A stretch of DNA of 64,000 nt. It comes from Minisyncoccota bacterium. GTDB taxonomy: Bacteria; Patescibacteriota; Minisyncoccia; UBA6257; 2-01-FULL-56-20. The translations under genes were made by a program, and so were the position numbers. A model generated the notes under the pieces. It saw nothing but the letters and a program-made list of their open reading frames with translations, ran no database searches and was not told where the DNA came from. Numbering within the stretch: position 1 is the stretch's first letter; each line of letters opens with the position of its first letter. This document shows positions 51,168 to 62,556 of the stretch, in pieces. The stretch lies in assembly GCA_035541435.1 (NCBI GenBank), contig DATKNL010000002.1, positions 67,962 through 131,961 of the forward strand, given 5' to 3'.

Positions 51168-52904
51168 TTACGAGGGATCGTCCGCGACGATGGGAAGGCC
51201 GTCGAGCTCCTTCAGTGCCGCCGCGAGCTCGGCATCATTCCCGTTCGCCTCGGCATTCCGCACCGCAAGGGTGAGGATCGCCCGCCGCTCGCGGTAGTAT
51301 TCCTTCGCAAGTTCCGCCTTGAGCCGCATGATCTCGTCGTCCGAAACGCCGCCGTCTCCGCCCCCACCGCCGCCGAAGACGATCATCCCGACGACGTGGT
51401 CGAGCCCCGGGTCCTCGCTCTTGTGCTGCCCGGCGGCGAGCAGCCTGAAGACCTCCTTCTGGGCGGGCTTGAGATAAGGAAGGCAGTCCTCGACGATCGC
51501 GAAGTCGTTCTTTGAGAACGCCGCGATGAAGAGCCGTTCGGCAAGGCGGTCCTGGCGGGACACCTCGCGCTTGGCCGCGTCGTCGTCGCCCGCGCCGTCG
51601 GCCCTCCGCGGCGACGAGGCCGGGACGCCCGACGACGATTTCTCAGCCTCTTCCTGCAGCGTCTTTTCGGGGATGCCGGTCCGCTTCGCGAGTTCGGCGA
51701 ACCAGAAGCCGCGCTCGACGGGGCTCGCGATCACCTTCAGCTTGCCGAGGACGGCGCGGAGCCGCTGCAGCCCGTCGCGGTTCTTGAGCTCGGCCGGGTC
51801 CGCGGGCAGGAACTTCTTGAAATAGAATTCGGGCGCGGGCATCGCGGCGGCGACCGTGCGCGCGACCGCGGCCGGGTCGGCCTTCGCGGCGTCGGCCGCG
51901 TCCTTATAGTCGGTGAACATCGCGACCTTCACGGTGAAGTCGTTCGCCTCGGCGAGGTCGATCGCCCGCTCGGCCGCGTCGGCGCCCGCGGCGTCGCTGT
52001 CGAAGCAGAGCACGATGTCCTCGGCGAGCCGGTGGATCACCGTAAGGTGGTCCGCGGTGAGCGCCGTCCCCGAGCTCGCCACCACGTTGCGCACGCCGGA
52101 CTGGTAGCTCATGAGGAAATCCATCTGCCCCTCCATGAGCACGGCCGCCTTCGTCTCGCGGATCGCGTCCTTGCTCTTCCAGAACCCATAGAGCAGCTTC
52201 GACTTCTGGAAGATCGGCGTCTCGGGGCTGTTCACGTATTTGCCCATGTCGCCCTTGTCGAGCTGCGGCAGGATGCGGCCGGTGAACCCGACCACCTTGC
52301 CCACGTGGTTGTGGATCGGGAACATGATGCGCCCCCGGAACCGGTCGAGCATGAGCCCGCGCTCCGTCTTGATGGAAAGCCCCGCCTGGACGAGGTCCTG
52401 CGGCGACGCGCCGGTGTTCAGCAGGTGCATCGAAAGCCCCTCGGGTTCGTTCGGCGCCCAGCCGATCTCGAACGTCTCGACCGTCTCGGGTGCAAGTCCC
52501 CGCTCCTCGAGATATTTTTTTGCGACCGGCGCGGCGGCGAACGCCTTCCTGAAAAACGCCTTGGCCTGGTCGTTCAGGTCATAGAGGAGGCCGCTATAGC
52601 GGTATTCGGCCGGATTCTCGTGGCGCAGCTCGACGCCGGTCTTCTCGGCGAGCATCCGCATCGCCTCGCCGAACTCGACGTTCTCATAACGCATCACGAA
52701 CGAGAAGGCGTCGCCGCCGAGGCCGCAGCCGAAGCAGTGCCAGGACTGCCGGTCGGGCGAGACCATGAAGGACGGCGTCTTCTCGTGATGGAACGGGCAG
52801 AGCGCCTTGAAGTTACGGCCCGCCGGCACGAGCGTGAGATAGCCGCGCAGGAAGTCGACGATGTCGAGCCTGCTTTTGATGAGTTCGGTCGTCGAGGAAG
52901 GCAT
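51168..52904 (-). CDS. dnaG: DNA primase DnaG
   Basis: Start reassigned to MPSSTTEL at 52904. Zn-ribbon CPFHHEKTPSF...CFGCG, TOPRIM (EGQMD...) domain. Immediately upstream of rpoD. Confidence 0.9.
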   Translation of the reverse strand: MPSSTTELIKSRLDIVDFLRGYLTLVPAGRNFKALCPFHHEKTPSFMVSPDRQSWHCFGCGLGGDAFSFVMRYENVEFGEAMRMLAEKTGVELRHENPAEYRYSGLLYDLNDQAKAFFRKAFAAAPVAKKYLEERGLAPETVETFEIGWAPNEPEGLSMHLLNTGASPQDLVQAGLSIKTERGLMLDRFRGRIMFPIHNHVGKVVGFTGRILPQLDKGDMGKYVNSPETPIFQKSKLLYGFWKSKDAIRETKAAVLMEGQMDFLMSYQSGVRNVVASSGTALTADHLTVIHRLAEDIVLCFDSDAAGADAAERAIDLAEANDFTVKVAMFTDYKDAADAAKADPAAVARTVAAAMPAPEFYFKKFLPADPAELKNRDGLQRLRAVLGKLKVIASPVERGFWFAELAKRTGIPEKTLQEEAEKSSSGVPASSPRRADGAGDDDAAKREVSRQDRLAERLFIAAFSKNDFAIVEDCLPYLKPAQKEVFRLLAAGQHKSEDPGLDHVVGMIVFGGGGGGDGGVSDDEIMRLKAELAKEYYRERRAILTLAVRNAEANGNDAELAAALKELDGLPIVADDPS

Positions 52905-52994
52905 GTTGCTCCTATTGTATGCCCCGCCCGCATGCGCCGCAATGCCGGGCCGCGCCCGCACGCGCCGTCCTTCGAGGGAAATATTAAAAAATCA

Positions 52995-54041
52995 TTAAAG
53001 GATCGCGATCTGGGCCGCGGCGCTCTGGTTCAGCATGACGGCGAGTCCCGCGACGACGATCACGATGAGCGCGCCGAAGATGAGTTTCGGATGCTGCACC
53101 TCGAACTTGATGAAGACGTTGAGGCCGAGCGCGACGAGGAAGAGCGCCATGAGGAACATATAGAAGTCGTTGGCGAGCGCCTTCGGGTCGGCGACGAGCC
53201 GCTGCAGGAAGTTCGTCTGCGGCGCGAGCGGCGCGGCGTGGTCCGACGAGATGAAGCCGAGGACGGCGCTCGAGCTGTTCGCGAGCGGCGGCGCGGTGGT
53301 CGCGCTCTCGGATGTTGCATTCCGGCCGGCCGCGGCGATCACGGTGTTCGTTGCCGGTTTCGGCGCGGGCTTCGGGGTCGGAGCCGGCGTCGGTTTGGCG
53401 TTCGGTTTCGCCGCGGGCGCGGGCGCGGCGGCGTTCGCCGACGAGAGTCCCGGGATCGGGCTGACCGCCACGGCGACCGGTGCGGGCGTCCCGAAGAGCT
53501 CGACGGCGAAGGTCGCATGATGGCCCTCGAACATGCCGTCGGCTTTCGCCATGCCGATCTCGGTGTAGTCCGGATCGAGGATGTTCGCGCGGTGTTCGGG
53601 CGAATTCATCCAGGCGTTCGTCACGTCCTGCGAGTCCGAGAAGTCGACGGCGAGGTTCTCGCCGGCATAGTCGAAGGAATAGCCGACCTGCGCGAACCAG
53701 TACCACGGCGTGAGCCCTTCGGGGCTCGTATGGGCGAAATAGCCCTTCGAGGCCATGTCGTTCGCCTTTTCCTGGGCGGCGGCGTCGAGAAGCGCGTTCT
53801 CACGGAGCGGCTGCAGGCTGTCCTTGACGCGGTTCGCGTTGGTCTCGTCGATGAGCGCGTTCGCGAGGACGATGCCGAAGAGCCTCGACCGCGGGATCAC
53901 GTAGCGCGACGCGCCGACATAGGCGCCTTCGGCGACGATGATCACGAGGCAGAAGAGCGCGACGACGCGCGGATGGAGGAGGTGCGGCTGATAGTCGTTC
54001 CCCTTGTGCGGAATGAAATACTTCTTGACCGCCTTGCGCAT
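52995..54041 (-). CDS. CAP/SCP/PR-1-like domain protein with N- and C-terminal membrane anchors and Pro/Ala-rich linker
   Basis: CAP-domain motifs (GYFAHTSPEG, GENLA, HRANIL). N-terminal TM, PAPxPKP linker, two C-terminal TM helices. Confidence 0.6.
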   Translation of the reverse strand: MRKAVKKYFIPHKGNDYQPHLLHPRVVALFCLVIIVAEGAYVGASRYVIPRSRLFGIVLANALIDETNANRVKDSLQPLRENALLDAAAQEKANDMASKGYFAHTSPEGLTPWYWFAQVGYSFDYAGENLAVDFSDSQDVTNAWMNSPEHRANILDPDYTEIGMAKADGMFEGHHATFAVELFGTPAPVAVAVSPIPGLSSANAAAPAPAAKPNAKPTPAPTPKPAPKPATNTVIAAAGRNATSESATTAPPLANSSSAVLGFISSDHAAPLAPQTNFLQRLVADPKALANDFYMFLMALFLVALGLNVFIKFEVQHPKLIFGALIVIVVAGLAVMLNQSAAAQIAIL

Positions 54042-54354: not shown

Positions 54355-54401
54355 ACAGCCAGGAAGACGAGGTCTCGCCATGAGACCTCGTTTTTGTTTC
54401 T

Positions 54402-55349
54402 TCAATCGCCGTATCCGATCTTTTTCCCGTTCTTCTCGTAACCGATCTTCACGAGTCCGCCGTTCCAATAGTGCAGGTCGGTGGCTTTCAGAAATTTCTC
54501 ACCACATTCGCCGAGGGTAACGTCCCACTCCTTCAGCGCCCTTTGCTTCGGCGCAGGGTCGTGATGCGTGAGGAGCCCGATCGAACGCCAATACATCCTC
54601 CGCTCCTGCCGCCGCGGCCCGAATAGGCCAAGGATGGCGCGACGAGCGTGATGCACTGGTTCGCGCTCAACGAGGCGGTAGACGTGCTCGAGGGCAGCCG
54701 CACGGATCAGGTTTTCGCTCGGCAGCGTCACGGCCTTCACGACGGCCTGCTTGAACCGGAGCGCGAACACCCGTTCGAGATAGATCATCCTGTCCTCATA
54801 CCAGAACGCTTCCGCATGCTCGTCAAAAAATTCCCGGTAGCGGATCGGGAACAGTCCGAACCGCATCGCCCATTTCACGTCGACGACGAAGAAGTCGAGC
54901 GACATGCCGATCTTGAACATGTTGCCCTCGAGCTTCGTCCCCCACGCGCACACCGCAAGCGGCTTCTTCTCGTTCCGCATGCCTGTTATGATTTTTTCGA
55001 CATAGTTCGGCTTGACGCACCACGTGTCCGATGCGAGCACGACGACGTAATCGATGTGAGGATGTTTCGTCGCGAAGCGTTCCAGTCCGGCGTTGAGCAG
55101 GAGTTCCGCGCCGCCGAAGTGGCCGGGGTTTTCGAGCCGCAGCAGGTCGTCCTCGAGATAGCGCTCGGGCCACCACGAGGCTTCGCCGTTGAACGCGTGG
55201 ACGACGGTCGCTTCGCGCAGAAGTTCGGACTTCCCCCAGACGTTGCGGATGATCTCAAGGTTCACCCGCGCGTCGTCGACGCGGTTGTGCGTATAGATGA
55301 GGACGCCGACATTGCTCGTGGCCGTGTCGCGTCCGGTGTTTCCGTCCAT
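54402..55349 (-). CDS. Hypothetical protein, possibly glycosyltransferase-like, immediately downstream of the giant surface-protein gene
   Basis: Start reassigned to MDGNTGRDTA at 55349. Single globular domain with DxD-like segments; no confident family. Confidence 0.45.
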   Translation of the reverse strand: MDGNTGRDTATSNVGVLIYTHNRVDDARVNLEIIRNVWGKSELLREATVVHAFNGEASWWPERYLEDDLLRLENPGHFGGAELLLNAGLERFATKHPHIDYVVVLASDTWCVKPNYVEKIITGMRNEKKPLAVCAWGTKLEGNMFKIGMSLDFFVVDVKWAMRFGLFPIRYREFFDEHAEAFWYEDRMIYLERVFALRFKQAVVKAVTLPSENLIRAAALEHVYRLVEREPVHHARRAILGLFGPRRQERRMYWRSIGLLTHHDPAPKQRALKEWDVTLGECGEKFLKATDLHYWNGGLVKIGYEKNGKKIGYGD

Positions 55350-55514
55350 GCACTCACTATAACAAAACGATTCCCGTCCGCCTCCCGCCAAGAACGCAAA
55401 AACCCCGCAGAGCGGGGTTTTTGCTTGGTGCCATCGTGGCTCGCGCTTCGCGGAACCGGTTGGCTTCCGTGCACGGGGCGATGCGCCTGCTGCAGCAGTC
55501 GCATGCGCTGGCCG

Positions 55515-58412
55515 TTACGGAAGCGGCGGAACCGCGAGGTTGAGCGCCGGGCACTCGATCAGGTTGATCCACCGCTGGGTCGTCTTATAGACGTAGTCCG
55601 TCGGTGTGAATTCCGTCTCGAGGCCGTAGGGCAGCCAGGGGCGAAGCACCTCGATGTGGTACTTCACCTGGAACTGGTCGACGGCTGCGATCGTGTCCGA
55701 ACCGTAATACCCGGTGACCGGAAGGCCGATGCCGAGGTTCTGGTTCAGGAAGAGTTGCAGCTTGCGGACTTCGGCGGGATCGTTCAGATCCTTGCGGATC
55801 GGATGGATGTACTGCGTGAGATAGATGCCGCAGCTTTCGCCGAGGACCTGGCCGGTCGTACTCGTGCTCGTGCCGAGCACCTGTCCGCCGCCACCGCCAC
55901 CGCCGTTGCCGCCGCCTCCACCTCCGCCTCCGCCACCTCCGCCGCCGGTGCCGCCCGCGACCGTGATGGTCGAGGACGCCGTGTTGTTGCCGACGTTCGG
56001 GTCAAGGACCCTGTTCGATTCGCCGACATGCGCGACGTTCGTGATCGCCTGTCCCGCGGTCCCCTGGTTGACCGTCGCCGTGATGACGAGGGTCACCTGG
56101 TGGCCGCTCGCGAGGTCGCCGATCGCCCACGCGCCCGTCGAGGTCGCGTACGTCCCCTGCGACGTGGTCGCCGAGACGAGCGTGAGCCCCGCGGGAAGCG
56201 TGTCGGTCGCGACTGCGCCGAACGATTCCGAAGGACCGAGGCCGGACACGGTCACCGTATAATGGATCGTCGATCCCTCATTCGGTGTCGCGTTGTCCAC
56301 GGATTTCGCGATGCCGATTTCGGCCGTGGGGATTCCTCCCCCGCCGCCACCGCCACCGCCTCCCCCGCCGCCGCCTCCACCACCGCCACCTCCGCCTCCG
56401 CCGCCATTCGTCTGAATGACGATCGAAACCGACGAGGTGTTGTTGCTCATGTTGGCGTCGGTCGAGCTGGACGACTCGCCGATCGTGGCGACGTTCGTGA
56501 TCGTCTGTCCCGCCGTCCCGGCATTGACCGTCGCCGTGATGACGAGGGTCGCCGTCGCGTTCGCGGGCATGTCGCCCACGACCCACGCGCCCGTCGAGGT
56601 CGCGTACGTCCCCTGCGACGTGGTCGCCGAGACGAACGTGAGCCCTGCGGGAAGCGTGTCGGTCGCGACGACCCCGGTCGAGGTCGCGGGACCGAGCGCC
56701 GAAGCGGCGAGCGTGAAGTTCACGGTGTCGCCCTCTTTCGGATTGCCGTTGTCGACGGTCTTCATGATCGCGATGTCGGCAGTCGTGGTCGGCGTTCCGC
56801 CGCCACCCCCGCCGCCCCCGCCACCGCCGCCGTTATTCGACTGCACGGCGAGGGTCGCGCTTGCGCTGTCGTTCGCGCCGTTCGAATCGTGCACGCCCGA
56901 GCCCTGCGAGACGGTCGCGGTGTTCACGATCGTCTGGCCCGCCGTCCCCGACGCCACGGTAGCCGTGATCGTGAGGGTGAGGCTGGAGCTCGGCGTGAGC
57001 GTCCCGATCGTCCAGAGGCCGGTCGAGCTCGCGAACGAGCCGCCGGTCGCGCTGGCCGAGACGAAGTCGAGCCCTGCGGGGAGCGTGTCGCTTGCGACGA
57101 CGCCCGGCGCGTTGCTCGGACCCGCGTTCGAGACGGTCACCGCGTAATGCACGGTGTCGCCCTCCTTCGGGTTCGCGTTGTCGACGGACTTCGCCACCGC
57201 GAGGTCGTCGGTCTGCTGGCCGACGGCCGGGTTCACGCTGATCGTCACGCTCGCGCTATCGTTGCCGATCGTCGCGGTGTTCGTGATCTGCATGCCCGAC
57301 TCGTTTCCGTTGATCTTCGCCGTGATGACGAGGTCGGCCGTCGCGCCCGAGGCGATGTCGCCGATCGTCCACGCGCCCGTCGAGGAGGCATAGCTGCCTT
57401 CCGACGAGCTGGCGCTGACGAACGTGAGGCCCGCGGGCATGACGTCGGTTGCCACGACGCTTGTCGCGTCGACGGCAGCCGTGTCGGTCACCGTGACCGT
57501 GTAATGGATCACGTCGCCCGCGAACGGGGTGCCGTTGTCGACGGTCTTCGTGAGCGTGAAGCTCGGCGTGGTCGAGGTCGACGTTCCGCCGCCCCCGCCT
57601 CCGCCGTTGCCGCCGCTCCCCGATCCGCAGCCTGCGCTCGCGGAGCCGGAGCCGCTCGAGCTTGCGCTCGAACTGGCGCTCGAACCCGTTCCCGACGACG
57701 AGCTGGTGCTCGTCGTGTTCGAGCTCGATGAGCTCGACGCGGTACTGGTGCACGAACCCGAGCCGGAGCTCGAGGACGACGAGGACGATCCGGAACCGGA
57801 ACCCGATCCCGAACCTGAGCTCGTCGAGCTCGAATTGCCGCCGTTGCCCGTCGTTCCCGTCGTGCTGCCCGAACCCGAACCGCTTGACGCGGTCGAGCTT
57901 GCGCTCGAACCCGAGGTTGAACCCGAGGACGAGGAGCTCGACGCGTTGCCATCCGTTCCGGACGCGCTTGCGGTGCTCGAGCTGTTCCCCGAAGCCGACC
58001 CGGAGGTCGTGCTCGAGGCGCTGCCGTTTCCGGCTGAGCTCGAGGTGCTCGAGGAATTCGAGGCGCTCGCGGTGCCCGACGTCGATGACGCCGATGTGCC
58101 GCTCGGGCCCGAAGAGCTCGACGCGGTGCTCGAAGCGCTCGCGCTCGAACTCGAACCGGAGCTCGAGCTTGAGGACGAGGTGGAACTCGTGTTCCCGCCC
58201 GTGCCCGAACTCGATGCCGCGCTCGAACCGTTATCCGATGTCAAGCTCGTCGCCGAACCCGCCACGGTCTGGCTCACAGCCTGGTCCGTAACGCCTGCCG
58301 CGCGCGCGACTGAAAGGTGACCGGCAACGGTGACTGCGGCGAACGCCCCCATGAGGAAGACTCCCTCGATGACGGCGATGCCGATAAGCAATTTCTTTAT
58401 TGCCTGTATCAT
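55515..58412 (-). CDS. Large secreted cell-surface protein: signal peptide, ~260-aa Ser/Thr/Gly-rich low-complexity region, 4x DUF11 repeats separated by poly-Gly linkers, C-terminal peptidoglycan-binding-like domain
   Basis: DUF11 signature repeated four times (TVDNG.P..GD...Y...V...GP....V.A.D.LPAGL.FVSA..S.G.YA.STG.W.IG....). Gly runs of 12-25 residues encoded by GGN/CCN DNA tracts. C-terminus VRKLQLFLNQNLGIGLPVTGYYGSDTIAAVDQFQ resembles PG_binding_1. Confidence 0.8.
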   Translation of the reverse strand: MIQAIKKLLIGIAVIEGVFLMGAFAAVTVAGHLSVARAAGVTDQAVSQTVAGSATSLTSDNGSSAASSSGTGGNTSSTSSSSSSSGSSSSASASSTASSSSGPSGTSASSTSGTASASNSSSTSSSAGNGSASSTTSGSASGNSSSTASASGTDGNASSSSSSGSTSGSSASSTASSGSGSGSTTGTTGNGGNSSSTSSGSGSGSGSGSSSSSSSSGSGSCTSTASSSSSSNTTSTSSSSGTGSSASSSASSSGSGSASAGCGSGSGGNGGGGGGGTSTSTTPSFTLTKTVDNGTPFAGDVIHYTVTVTDTAAVDATSVVATDVMPAGLTFVSASSSEGSYASSTGAWTIGDIASGATADLVITAKINGNESGMQITNTATIGNDSASVTISVNPAVGQQTDDLAVAKSVDNANPKEGDTVHYAVTVSNAGPSNAPGVVASDTLPAGLDFVSASATGGSFASSTGLWTIGTLTPSSSLTLTITATVASGTAGQTIVNTATVSQGSGVHDSNGANDSASATLAVQSNNGGGGGGGGGGGGTPTTTADIAIMKTVDNGNPKEGDTVNFTLAASALGPATSTGVVATDTLPAGLTFVSATTSQGTYATSTGAWVVGDMPANATATLVITATVNAGTAGQTITNVATIGESSSSTDANMSNNTSSVSIVIQTNGGGGGGGGGGGGGGGGGGGGGGGGIPTAEIGIAKSVDNATPNEGSTIHYTVTVSGLGPSESFGAVATDTLPAGLTLVSATTSQGTYATSTGAWAIGDLASGHQVTLVITATVNQGTAGQAITNVAHVGESNRVLDPNVGNNTASSTITVAGGTGGGGGGGGGGGGGNGGGGGGGQVLGTSTSTTGQVLGESCGIYLTQYIHPIRKDLNDPAEVRKLQLFLNQNLGIGLPVTGYYGSDTIAAVDQFQVKYHIEVLRPWLPYGLETEFTPTDYVYKTTQRWINLIECPALNLAVPPLP

Positions 58413-58743: not shown

Positions 58744-58814
58744 GCGGGTATGGTTCAGTGGCAGAACGCGACCTTCCCAAGGTTGAGATACGGGTTCGAT
58801 TCCCGTTACCCGCT
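58744..58814 (+). tRNA. tRNA-Gly (anticodon CCC)
   Basis: Manual fold: acceptor GCGGGUA/UACCCGC, D-arm GUUC-AGUGGCA-GAAC, anticodon loop UUCCCAA giving CCC, T-arm ACGGG-UUCGAUU-CCCGU, discriminator U. Confidence 0.85.
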
Positions 58815-58825
58815 CATATAAAAAA

Positions 58826-59526: not shown

Positions 59527-62500
59527 TCATCGATTCAGCACCCTTACCACCCCCTCGTTTGCGTCAACCTCAATCCAGTCGCCGTCATTTATCACGTCGG
59601 TAGCTATTCTGGTGCCGATAACGCAAGGCTTCTTAAACTCCCTCGCAATAATGGCGGCGTGACTCGTGACTCCGCCTTCGTCGGTGACGAAAGCGGCCGA
59701 TCTTTTCATCGCCGGCAGATAGTCGGGCATCGTCATGGGACTAATCAGGATCTCGCCCTCTTTCAAGGTCGGCACATCCTTAAGGCTCATGATTTTTCTT
59801 GCAATGCCGCGAACTTTACCCCGGTGAGCGGATTGGCCCGAAAACTCCTTGATAGCGTCAGGCGCCTCAGAAACAATGGCGATATTAAATTTTTCTTCCA
59901 TTTCCCTAACACCCGCACCGACGAATAATGTTGCATCCGCAAAGGAATAGCTCTTCGTCCTGGCCTTCAATTCCCTCAATGAGGGCAGCTCCTTGGAATT
60001 GATTTCTTCGATGGTCAAAGCCGCCGAGAGCTTGCCTAGTTTTGGGAATATTTTAAGCAGTGAATTTCTTATCACGATGTCGCCATTCGGCACCATCGTT
60101 TCAGTGGAAACCCTAGCCCTTTTAACAATACGAAACGCTTTGCTGGTCGAACTTGCCATTTCCATCGTCCACCATACCGATTCGAACCAGGCCCACGCAT
60201 CCTCCAGATGAGCCATGAAGCTGACCAGCGTCTTATGGTTCAGCGTTCTTTTCCCTTTCCAAATTGGCTCGATATCCTTCGCCCTTTTATAAAATTCTCT
60301 TACGCATTTCTCGACGAACTTTTTATCCCTTTTCATGGACCTTCTCAGTTCGCCTTTTATCCAATCGATCCCTGCCTCATCGAGATAATCAGTAACCAGG
60401 CCATTCTCTCTGACGAAGATTTGATAAGGCAGCCTTGGATTGGTTCTGGCCGTCCATTGCCTTGGATTGGTAGTTTCAGCTCGGCACCACATCTGAATGA
60501 TCGGCAGGCAAAAATCTCGGACATAGGATTTGACATAGGTGCCTCTGATTTTCTTGCCCGATCCCGAGACGCTCGATCCCGCTATCCTTCTAACCCTTCC
60601 CTTGTCTGCATCGACCTCCACCATGTCGCCGTCCTTAAAGAATTCTGTCGCTATCTTCGTTCCGATGATGCAGGGTTTTCTAAGTTCCCTGGCAACGATT
60701 CCAGCGTGACACGTTATTCCACCTTCATCCGTGACAAAAGCCAGCGCCTTCTTCATAGCCGGCAAGAAGTCCGGCGTAGTCATAGGAGATACGATCACGT
60801 CGCCTTCTTTGACTTCCCCAACCTGATCCCGTCGCCGGAGTATCTTCACGCGGCCAACCACTCTGCCTTTTTGGGCTATTTCTCCGGCAATGACATTAGG
60901 ATCATTGATAGCGATGGATTCCTTTTCAAATGAGAATTGAGGATTTACATTTTCAAAGTCAGACAAGGTGCCAATAAAATGGTTTTTACCCTGAACAATA
61001 AGCGAGTGCCGCTTGCGGTCCTTCAGTGTCCTGTTGGCAGGAATCTTCCTAAGTTCGCTGATAAAAATCGCGGTTTCATAATGTTTTGCCCGCGGATATA
61101 AAGCGGAGATGCTGTCCATTATTACGATGTCATTTCGCGCAAAGAACTCATCCTTATTGCGCATCGCAAGAGCCTTTTTTCTGATGGGTTTTGGCGTTTT
61201 GTCGTCAACGGCGGAATAGTAATAAGCAATGAAGTAAGGGATTGCTTCCTTGGAAAGCTCAATGAGTTTAATGAGCTTACTCATCGGAAGCGGCGCCATC
61301 TTCCACAGTTCATGAATCGCATCGAGCCTGATTCTATATTCCCCGAGGATCTTGTCGATAAATTTCGGATTTCTTCTGTTTTCCTTCAAAATGGCATTTT
61401 CCAACCATTCGGTGGCTTTTACGTTCTCCCAAATTTCGATGCTTCCCTGATTCATGTAATGGATAATCCCAGGCAGATAAGGGTTCTTCCAACCAAATTC
61501 TCCTTCGACACCGTCAGAACATCCGAATGCCCATATCTCCTGCATGATATAGGTGGTATCACGGGTATATATCTTTTTGAACTTTATAGGATCGTCTTTT
61601 TCCTTCTTTGGCCAAGACAACGTCGTAATGGGCCGCGACTGCACGATATAAAATTTTCCCTTTTCCAAGGCCCATTCAATATCACACGGAAAACCATATT
61701 GGTCTTCGATGCGAAGAATCAATTTCGACAACTCGAGGATTTGCTTGTCGGGAAGAGCTTGCTTACCTGCTTTCGATTTGGAAATATCTTTCCACTCGTT
61801 TTCGCCCCTCGGCAAACGATAGAGTCCTCTGCCTTTTTTCGGGATTATCCGCTCAATAATTTTTCTTGGTTCTTTTTCGATTACATAGCTATCAGGAGTG
61901 ACTTGGCCGGAAACGATTGCTTCGCCCAACCCATAGCTTGCCTCGATGATAAGCTGGTTGCGATCCTGCGTTACTGGATGGACCGAAAAGGCGACGCCCG
62001 AAACCTCGCTCTCGACCATCTTTTGAACGACCACGGCGACGGAAATTTTTTCGGCGCGAAGCCCCTTCTCGAAGCGGTAGAAAATGGCGCGGGGCGTAAA
62101 GAGTGACGCCCAGCAGCGTTTCACATTTTCTAAAAGATTGCCTCCAGTGGTATTTAAAAAGCTATCCAGCTGCCCCGCCCACGCCGCCGATGAGCCGTCC
62201 TCGGCCGTTGCGCTGGAACGCACCGCGACGAATTTAGCTCCCAATTTCTTGAAGTTTCTTTTGATCTCCATGGCGACGTCCTCTGGCATTTCAGTGCCGA
62301 TAATGATCGCCCTGATTTCCTCGGATGCCCGCTCGACGCTGGCCGTGTTTCGATGCTTTATCTTATGCAAAATGGCATCTATGTCAGCTGCAATCCCCTG
62401 CTCTTCAATGAACTTTTCGAAGGCTGTCGAAAGAATGACGAAACCGGACGGAACCGGAAGGCCCGCTTGCGTCATTTCCCCAAGTGACGCTCCCTTGCCA

Positions 62501-62556
62501 CCAGCAAGCGCGACATCCTTTTTGCTCAACCCTTCAAAGTCCCGCGAGAATTCCAT
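59527..62556 (-). CDS. PEP-synthase / rifampin-phosphotransferase-like protein: N-terminal PPDK_N ATP-grasp nucleotide-binding domain plus two PEP-utilizing-enzyme mobile (phospho-His swivel) domains; no PEP/pyruvate TIM-barrel domain
   Basis: 1009 aa. N-terminus (ALAGGKGASLGEMTQAGLPVP...VAVRSSATAEDG...) is PpsA/PPDK_N-like. Swivel 1 ~aa 575-680 (GDVIVSPMTTPDFLPAMKKALAFVTDEGGITCHAGIVARELRKPCIIG) and swivel 2 ~aa 905-1009 (GEILISPMTMPDYLPAMKRSAAFVTDEGGVTSHAAIIAREFKKPCVIG), each preceded by a helical region. The gene is visibly AT-richer than the genome background. Confidence 0.75.
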   Translation of the reverse strand: MEFSRDFEGLSKKDVALAGGKGASLGEMTQAGLPVPSGFVILSTAFEKFIEEQGIAADIDAILHKIKHRNTASVERASEEIRAIIIGTEMPEDVAMEIKRNFKKLGAKFVAVRSSATAEDGSSAAWAGQLDSFLNTTGGNLLENVKRCWASLFTPRAIFYRFEKGLRAEKISVAVVVQKMVESEVSGVAFSVHPVTQDRNQLIIEASYGLGEAIVSGQVTPDSYVIEKEPRKIIERIIPKKGRGLYRLPRGENEWKDISKSKAGKQALPDKQILELSKLILRIEDQYGFPCDIEWALEKGKFYIVQSRPITTLSWPKKEKDDPIKFKKIYTRDTTYIMQEIWAFGCSDGVEGEFGWKNPYLPGIIHYMNQGSIEIWENVKATEWLENAILKENRRNPKFIDKILGEYRIRLDAIHELWKMAPLPMSKLIKLIELSKEAIPYFIAYYYSAVDDKTPKPIRKKALAMRNKDEFFARNDIVIMDSISALYPRAKHYETAIFISELRKIPANRTLKDRKRHSLIVQGKNHFIGTLSDFENVNPQFSFEKESIAINDPNVIAGEIAQKGRVVGRVKILRRRDQVGEVKEGDVIVSPMTTPDFLPAMKKALAFVTDEGGITCHAGIVARELRKPCIIGTKIATEFFKDGDMVEVDADKGRVRRIAGSSVSGSGKKIRGTYVKSYVRDFCLPIIQMWCRAETTNPRQWTARTNPRLPYQIFVRENGLVTDYLDEAGIDWIKGELRRSMKRDKKFVEKCVREFYKRAKDIEPIWKGKRTLNHKTLVSFMAHLEDAWAWFESVWWTMEMASSTSKAFRIVKRARVSTETMVPNGDIVIRNSLLKIFPKLGKLSAALTIEEINSKELPSLRELKARTKSYSFADATLFVGAGVREMEEKFNIAIVSEAPDAIKEFSGQSAHRGKVRGIARKIMSLKDVPTLKEGEILISPMTMPDYLPAMKRSAAFVTDEGGVTSHAAIIAREFKKPCVIGTRIATDVINDGDWIEVDANEGVVRVLNR

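Follow-up and report, generated by a model that had tools for sequence, protein, structure and literature searches.

The very long glycine runs in a predicted surface protein of a Minisyncoccota bacterium (Patescibacteriota) raise two questions: whether the GGN codon tracts that encode them are hypermutable, and whether the protein is modified by the product of the adjacent gene. A preliminary description of this DNA had proposed both. The surface-protein gene is located at 55515-58412 on the minus strand of a stretch of 64,000 nucleotides (nt) from assembly GCA_035541435.1 (contig DATKNL010000002.1, 67,962 to 131,961 of the forward strand). This stretch is called here the window, and all coordinates are given in it unless another locus is named. 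The adjacent gene is at 54402-55349, and the features of both genes are on the minus strand. The explanation that we favor, and consider reasonably probable, is that of a Sec-exported envelope protein similar to the fibrillar adhesins and held at the wall, with a stalk of DUF11 (now CLIPPER) domains linked by glycine, whose tracts change slowly by insertions and deletions (indels), and with an independent neighbor of GT-A fold.

The surface-protein gene is an uninterrupted open reading frame (ORF) of 965 amino acids (aa), a size for which the term giant, used at first, is excessive. Four DUF11 domains had been proposed and four were recovered by both profiles searched, Pfam DUF11 (PF01345; 376.7 bits over a threshold of 24.6, four stretches) and NCBIfam TIGR01451 (186.4 bits over a threshold of 24, four stretches), and it is on such tool results that the domain identities of the surface protein rest. 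Domain 1 (aa 277-400, 57213..57584), detected by Pfam and TIGR01451, contains the Lys of TLTKTVDN, the Asp of VVATDVMP and the Asn of QITNTATI. Domain 2 (aa 401-527, 56832..57212) includes the best Pfam stretch, aa 403-521, that covers positions 1-114 of the 114 of the profile, and the three residues are present as well. Domain 3 (aa 540-669, 56406..56795) had a single match among the PDB sequences, 9IFR (E 0.0087), and domain 4 (aa 694-819, 55956..56333) was delimited by Pfam, TIGR01451 and the alignment of the repeats. In this alignment the columns of the Lys-Asp-Asn triad are kept in all four repeats. At the DNA level the DUF11 units of the gene are 66-83% identical among one another, and domains 3 and 4 are 77-83% identical at a spacing of 456 nt.

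The DUF11 family has been recently renamed CLIPPER, and the crystal structure 9IFR contains an intramolecular Lys-Asn isopeptide bond whose formation is catalysed by an Asp (Protein Sci 2025, PMC12617251). The same study describes CLIPPER domains as stalk-forming in fibrillar adhesins (PMC12617251). When domain 3 was aligned with 9IFR, its Lys fell on Lys715 and its Asn on Asn806, the two bonded residues, and its Asp on the neighboring Asp. The four domains of the window protein may thus carry isopeptide bonds of the same kind. The match to 9IFR was obtained by searching the PDB sequences with one DUF11 repeat alone. A search with the whole DUF11 region was swamped by engineered constructs because of the glycine runs: most of the matches were constructs with Gly-Ser linkers, and the linker region itself matched solely synthetic G4S.

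The N-terminus (aa 1-38, MIQAIKKLLIGIAVIEGVFLMGAFAAVTVAGHLSVARA, 58299..58412), read from the translation, has a basic n-region followed by a hydrophobic stretch of ~23 aa and an A-x-A motif. The signal peptide described before is therefore recognizable as a signal peptide or membrane anchor, and its cleavage, like its retention, would be a prediction made from these residues. What follows is a low-complexity region rich in Ser, Thr and Gly, delimited by composition (aa 39-269, 57606..58298). Its richness in Ser and Thr agrees with the earlier account (117 S, 47 G, 36 T and 24 A in aa 41-290), and its length is ~235 aa instead of the ~260 given there.

An exact look-up of the 965-aa protein in the protein collection gave no record, because the public gene call splits the gene. 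This call was found in L001, a contig from ENA that is 99.908% identical to the window across 19.6 kb. It consists of a 665-aa product and an antisense ORF of 263 aa, and spans L001 7030-9835, equivalent to 55515-58320 of the window. The 665-aa product begins at a GTG codon (V301), i.e., inside DUF11 domain 1, and loses the export signal, which is why the 965-aa model is preferred. We judged the antisense ORF spurious. Its GC content at third codon positions (GC3) was 0.80, versus 0.79 for the sense Ser/Thr-rich frame, values that do not separate the two frames. The 965-aa gene model is the correct one, and with the split call corrected the full surface protein can enter the databases.

The C-terminal module (aa 844-965, 122 aa, 55518..55883) has a PG_binding_1 core at aa 880-922 (55647-55775). 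Pfam PG_binding_1 (PF01471) gave 24.2 bits with the whole protein and 28.1 bits with the module alone, above the cut-off of 23, and it was matched in 22 of 26 homologous modules. The C-terminal peptidoglycan-binding domain recognized before thus stands as a family assignment, and binding of peptidoglycan by the module is what this assignment would predict. The module is led in by a conserved QVLG..STS..GQVLG motif and contains an invariant pair of Cys at protein residues 861 and 954 (module positions C18 and C111). It was modelled by AlphaFold2 as all-helical (predicted local distance difference test, pLDDT, 81.9). The Foldseek search of this model placed CtpB at ranks 1-2 and the N-terminal domain of SleB at rank 19, both from proteins that bear PG_binding_1, with non-significant E values (>1). 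The phmmer comparison of the module with the PDB gave 5tv7, a 'peptidoglycan-binding/hydrolysing protein', at a weak E of 0.89.

When the C-terminal module was used in a back-translated search, at least 350 metagenome loci were found to encode a relative of it. We inspected 82 module-bearing proteins from 80 loci (L054-L133). DUF11 was present in 28 of the 82 and other passenger regions in the remaining 54, while glycine runs of at least 5 residues, and up to 19, were found in 48. In the homologs these runs are located between domains and directly before the C-terminal module, as in the window protein; one of them (P0134) has the same GGT-Gn-N-Gm-QVLG pattern with n=8 and m=5. Since both the runs and the module recur at equivalent places in the relatives, polyglycine linkers and module appear to be traits of a protein family of Patescibacteria. 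Homologs with DUF11 and PG_binding_1 are numerous, and the few with a named source belong to Pacebacteria or other groups of the Candidate Phyla Radiation (CPR). Except for the farthest one (38%), the 25 homologous modules compared are 53-81% identical to that of the window protein; with the protein in full, the best local alignment to relatives has an identity of ~50%. Some relatives carry extra Ig-like domains in the place of the low-complexity head. The window protein seems peculiar in two respects, its long linkers, with a run of 24 residues as the longest seen, and its Ser/Thr-rich head. The densest 100 aa of this head contain 71 Ser plus Thr (measured on the near-identical L001 copy) versus 50 or fewer in all 82 proteins that share the module. 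At L004 (10771-16912), a locus with a homolog of the adjacent gene, a module-bearing protein of 457 aa adjoins a protein of 4052 aa with Peptidase_S74.

The glycine runs separate most of the parts described above. A Gly7 run (57585..57605; GGC GGA GGC GGG GGC GGC GGA) connects the Ser/Thr-rich region with DUF11 domain 1. A Gly12 linker (56796..56831), with mixed GGC, GGT, GGG and GGA codons and 78-86% matches in Tandem Repeats Finder (TRF), connects domains 2 and 3. A Gly24 linker of 24 GGN codons (56334..56405), which TRF resolved into a 24-nt unit repeated three times imperfectly (81%), lies between domains 3 and 4. The last linker, GGT-G13-N-G7 (aa 820-843, 55884..55955, with the Gly tract at 55884-55946), precedes the C-terminal module. 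The three main tracts were thus where they had been located, and the one at 57585-57605 is to be added. The description of domains split by runs of 12 to 25 residues holds in part: the runs are of 7, 12, 24 and 13+N+7 residues, and there is none at the junction of domains 1 and 2, where the sequence is NPAVGQQTDD. The Gly24 linker is longer than every run in 120 listed homologs (maximum of 11 among those inspected) and in the 82 metagenome relatives (maximum of 19). When we searched the literature for surface proteins of CPR bacteria with natural polyglycine linkers, solely papers on protein engineering were retrieved. The linkers described here are a natural counterpart of the engineered Gly-rich ones.

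The codon composition of the tracts is informative about their stability. GGC, GGT, GGA and GGG are interleaved, the longest perfect run with a 3-nt period being of 11 nt, and for units of 6 to 15 nt the perfect runs are of 17-26 nt. The relatives have 27 tracts with at least 10 Gly, and all of these likewise show mixed codons and perfect triplet runs no longer than 11 nt. Between the window and L001 there are 18 single nucleotide polymorphisms (SNPs) and no indels over the 19.6 kb, and every tract has the same length. Likewise, pairs of relatives with 100% identical flanks always had equal tract lengths. Two in-tract indel events were detected among alleles of relatives that are 97-99% identical. 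One is between L090 and L091, whose 966 nt differ by three substitutions and a single gap, which is a change of two codons in the Gly tract; in the other, L058 and L079 are three Gly codons apart from L092. At 70-82% protein identity the tract lengths of relatives were commonly unequal. The order of the synonymous codons is preserved between alleles of the relatives, indicating that the tracts are old and stable. The mixed codons, the lack of indels against an independent, 99.9%-identical assembly and the differences of two or three codons in relatives suggest together that the tracts are slow, in-frame indel hotspots on a strain-level timescale, and not contingency repeats. Besides, triplet indels inside a coding region keep the frame, so that no on/off switching by the tracts is to be expected. 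We conclude that the Gly content is kept by selection at the protein level.

The slippage-prone character attributed to these tracts finds no backing at the window locus. What survives is a weaker form of variability, the small Gly-codon indels between close alleles of the relatives. Something similar can be said of the proposed variation in repeat number. Two homologs, P0134 and P0140, are identical but for one in-frame DUF11 unit of 132 aa, with the junction in a conserved VVATDTLP segment, a difference that may be either a true variation in repeat number or an assembly collapse; variation between cells is unsupported at the window locus. The lesson is that mixed-codon GGN runs should not be taken as contingency repeats.

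Two features of the surroundings touch on the glycine tracts. The window is GC-rich (~60-68% GC across most of its length), and DnaG, encoded at 51168-52961 on the minus strand, has a G6-D-GG run near aa 530, apparently an inter-domain linker; a genome as GC-rich as this one may favor Gly-rich linkers in general. The gene for a tRNA-Gly (anticodon CCC) is located at 58744-58815 on the plus strand, ~330 nt upstream of the surface gene. A connection with the tracts was considered and rejected: GGG is used in just 5 of the 63 tract codons, and for this reason the nearness is probably a coincidence.

The other half of the question concerns the gene at 54402-55349, 315 aa from its ATG, which belongs to a small family of Patescibacteria without Pfam assignment. 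None of the Pfam or NCBIfam models reached its threshold with the product: NCBIfam gave no match, and the best Pfam result was NTP_transf_3, with 16.5 bits for a cut-off of 27. Of 54 family members, 40 had a sub-threshold Pfam match to NTP_transf_3 and 14 to Glycos_transf_2, both of which we take to be GT-A-type nucleotide-sugar folds. A total of 126 homologs with 39-62% identity were found, all those with a name being hypothetical, from Parcubacteria/Paceibacterota and related groups. Among 1.84 billion cluster representatives, only 209 match the family, which is confined to genomes of the Patescibacteria type. The AlphaFold2 model, built with 54 homologs, had a pLDDT of 93.6 and a predicted TM-score (pTM) of 0.92. 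All of the 50 Foldseek matches listed in the PDB were of the GT-A fold class, nearly all of them glycosyltransferases, with E values from 5.7e-7, probability 1.0 and TM of 0.27-0.41. The low TM values, of ~0.4, are explained by the C-terminal half of ~150 aa, which is family-specific. As regards motifs, that of the N-terminal strand is GT2-like (IYTHNR), and the fourth strand is followed by a conserved Asp, in VLASDTW. This single D108, nearly invariant, follows strand 101-106, and a clear DxD was not seen; D152, H51, H77 and H263 are invariant in the family. The family profile gave no match with PDB sequences even at E 10, and a Pfam scan of ten remote members did not give anything usable as a link to a named glycosyltransferase family. 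The product would then be glycosyltransferase-like at the level of the predicted fold, and to this extent the original suggestion is supported; membership of a Pfam or NCBIfam family is not.

Its relationship with the surface protein is another matter. Between both genes there is a strong terminator-like hairpin (55398..55422, AAAAACCCCGC-UCU-GCGGGGUUUUU) with a folding energy of -25.6 kcal/mol and a z of -4.0, matched by none of 200 shuffles. We noticed it on reading the sequence, and RNA folding confirmed it; the consensus terminator scan missed it, probably because the stem runs into the U run. The GT-A-like gene is probably a separate transcription unit. Related loci of the GT-A-like gene contained a DUF11 gene in 0 of 52 cases and a Ser/Thr-rich ORF in 2 of 52, and conversely the GT-A-like gene was found in 0 of the 80 loci with the anchor module. 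The idea that the neighbor modifies the Ser/Thr region is therefore unsupported, and so is the expected co-occurrence with Ser/Thr-rich surface proteins. The contexts of the homologs are variable: a glycan gene cluster (L002), the vicinity of a PG_binding_1 protein (L004), housekeeping genes (L006 and L007) or, in L005 (8001-8873), a position within the ribosomal protein operon, in the opposite orientation and flanked by rpsS and rplB. In L028 (282-4396), as in the window, dnaG-rpoD is immediately preceded by the GT-A-like gene, and the surface gene is absent. Genes of glycan clusters were near at least 5 of 46 GT-A-like loci in a local phmmer search with glycan-cluster seeds, a lower bound because the sensitivity of this search was low. 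The hairpin, the lack of co-occurrence in either direction, the variable contexts and the arrangement in L028 support that the GT-A-fold gene is an independent, widely conserved gene of Patescibacteria that would adjoin the surface gene by chance. An adjacent gene of glycosyltransferase fold with no conserved synteny is no evidence of a glycosylation partnership.

Other genes are found around these two. The GT-A-like gene ends in a stop codon that is closely followed by a hairpin with a 15-bp stem (54363-54395). With a T-run on the plus strand and an A-run on the minus one, this hairpin may act as a bidirectional terminator. The gene at 52995-54041 (minus strand), between the GT-A-like gene and dnaG, codes for another envelope protein, of the CAP/YkwD family (62.8 bits for Pfam CAP), whose linker is rich in Pro, Ala and Lys and whose C-terminus is hydrophobic. 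On the other side, at 59527-62556 (minus strand), a protein of 1009 aa is encoded with PPDK_N and two PEP-utilizers mobile domains. This PPDK-like gene looks horizontally acquired, since its GC3 is 0.56 compared with 0.79-0.92 in its neighbors and the 60-62 kb region has 46% GC.

Put together, the explanation that we favor would work as follows. The Cys-flanked PG_binding_1 module at the C-terminus would hold the exported protein non-covalently on the cell's own peptidoglycan. The stalk would be made of the four Ig-like CLIPPER domains, each one with the Lys-Asp-Asn triad of the isopeptide bond. With pure polyglycine linkers of 12, 24 and 13+7 residues it would behave as a flexible string of beads instead of a rod, and the outermost part would be the disordered Ser/Thr/Gly-rich segment. 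The length of the linkers would shift by occasional in-frame indels over strain-level time, without rapid slippage. Several points weigh against this explanation. The cleavage of the N-terminus, the isopeptide bonds, the binding of peptidoglycan, the adhesive function, the orientation of the protein and its ligand are all predicted. The number published for the catalytic Asp of 9IFR is one residue off the count in our alignment, and the fold search of the module gave non-significant matches alone (E above 1). Besides, consensus assemblies mask length variants within a population, so that two assemblies with no indels between them argue only weakly against heterogeneity. The model of hypermutable GGN tracts, in which linker length and repeat number vary between cells and the neighbor is a dedicated O-glycosylating enzyme of the Ser/Thr region, would account for tract lengths of 5-19 Gly in relatives versus 24 here, for the two in-tract indels between 97-99% alleles (L090/L091 included) and for P0134 and P0140 being exactly one DUF11 unit apart. 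It would also suit a neighbor of GT-A fold with a homolog, in L002, within a glycan gene cluster. We regard it as improbable all the same: the codons are interleaved, with perfect triplet runs of 11 nt at most and an order preserved between alleles, no indels appeared in 19.6 kb, pairs with identical flanks share tract lengths, in-frame triplets are unable to switch expression on and off, and the two genes are set apart by the inter-gene hairpin and by the counts in related loci (DUF11 in 0/52, Ser/Thr-rich ORF in 2/52, GT-A-like gene in 0/80).

The topology could also be the reverse, with an uncleaved N-terminal anchor, the Ser/Thr segment crossing the cell's own wall and a distal PG_binding_1 module that grips the peptidoglycan of a host, and an episymbiont would then use the protein to attach itself. 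The Patescibacteria in culture are attached to host bacteria, the hydrophobic stretch of ~23 aa is closer to a transmembrane helix than to the typical core of a signal peptide, and the module is the best conserved part of the protein (53-81%, one at 38%, versus ~50% for the whole) and is found on many unrelated passengers, 54 of 82 without DUF11. This reading seems unlikely to us given that the A-x-A after the hydrophobic stretch fits cleavage, that nothing in this analysis bears on host binding, and that known fibrillar adhesins have the wall anchor at the C-terminus and the binding region at the N-terminus (PMC12617251). A variant of it goes further and takes the module, Cys-flanked and preceded by polyglycine, as an interchangeable tip or anchor used all over the Patescibacteria, which here would be distal on a membrane-anchored tether and bind host peptidoglycan, with Gly indels that tune its reach between strains; we give this variant little chance. 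A different possibility is that the protein is not an adhesin and has a structural role in the envelope with no specific ligand, as a hydrated spacer or a wall matrix similar to an S-layer or a capsule. There is no recognizable adhesive or lectin-type head, the distal part being of low complexity, and DUF11 repeats are also found in archaeal S-layer-associated porins (PMC12617251). Against it, four domains with very flexible linkers are unlike lattice-forming proteins, and relatives have further Ig-like domains instead of the low-complexity head, so that we think it rather doubtful.

With the wall-held stalk as the preferred reading, the locus provides a well-defined example of a recurrent family that combines CLIPPER domains, natural polyglycine linkers and a peptidoglycan-binding end module. 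The surface proteins of the ultra-small and mostly uncultured Patescibacteria presumably mediate attachment to their hosts. The closest known systems are the CLIPPER stalk proteins (PF01345, 9IFR), also secreted, with tandem Ig-like DUF11 domains and a wall or surface anchor, and each of the four domains here has the Lys/Asp/Asn triad. In those proteins the linkers are short and the distal part is a folded adhesive domain, whereas here we have pure polyglycine runs of 12-24 residues, a Ser/Thr-rich low-complexity distal segment and an anchor that would be the non-covalent PG_binding_1 module. A keyword search of the text of PMC12617251 showed neither PG_binding nor Patescibacteria. The serine-rich repeat glycoproteins (Fap1, GspB and SraP) resemble the window protein in the long Ser-rich region, the association to the wall and a neighbor of glycosyltransferase fold. 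These glycoproteins of Gram-positive cocci are encoded with GtfA/GtfB and accessory Sec loci. The window protein has no LPXTG motif and no serine-rich repeat periodicity of the dipeptide type, its neighbor has a GT-A fold unlike the GT-B-fold GtfA/GtfB pair, and the adjacency is conserved in none of the 52 plus 80 related loci. Neither secA2 nor secY2 were found in the flanks of the surface gene, made up of the tRNA-Gly, PPDK-like, GT-A-like, CAP and dnaG genes.

The staphylococcal Ser-Asp repeat proteins (ClfA, Sdr) share with this protein a low-complexity spacer made from imperfect short DNA repeats. Their repeat region spans the wall, has a strain-variable length and sets the projection of the folded domains. 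Here the spacers are multiple, located between domains and made of Gly only, the anchor is of the non-covalent type, and the length variation documented in the relatives is small (two or three codons between 97-99% alleles). Like in the contingency loci of Haemophilus, Neisseria and Mycoplasma, there are short-period repeats within the gene of a surface protein. Contingency loci have long perfect repeats that usually shift the frame or are located in promoters, whereas the tracts of the window are interrupted at nearly every third base, in frame and stable between near-identical assemblies. As for the neighboring gene, its product shares with the GT-A glycosyltransferases (GT2, the blood-group GTA/GTB, COLGALT1) the predicted fold, the IYTHNR strand and the Asp in VLASDTW. 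It differs from them in the single Asp in place of a clear DxD, in the family-specific C-terminal half of ~150 aa and in scores below the Pfam and NCBIfam thresholds.

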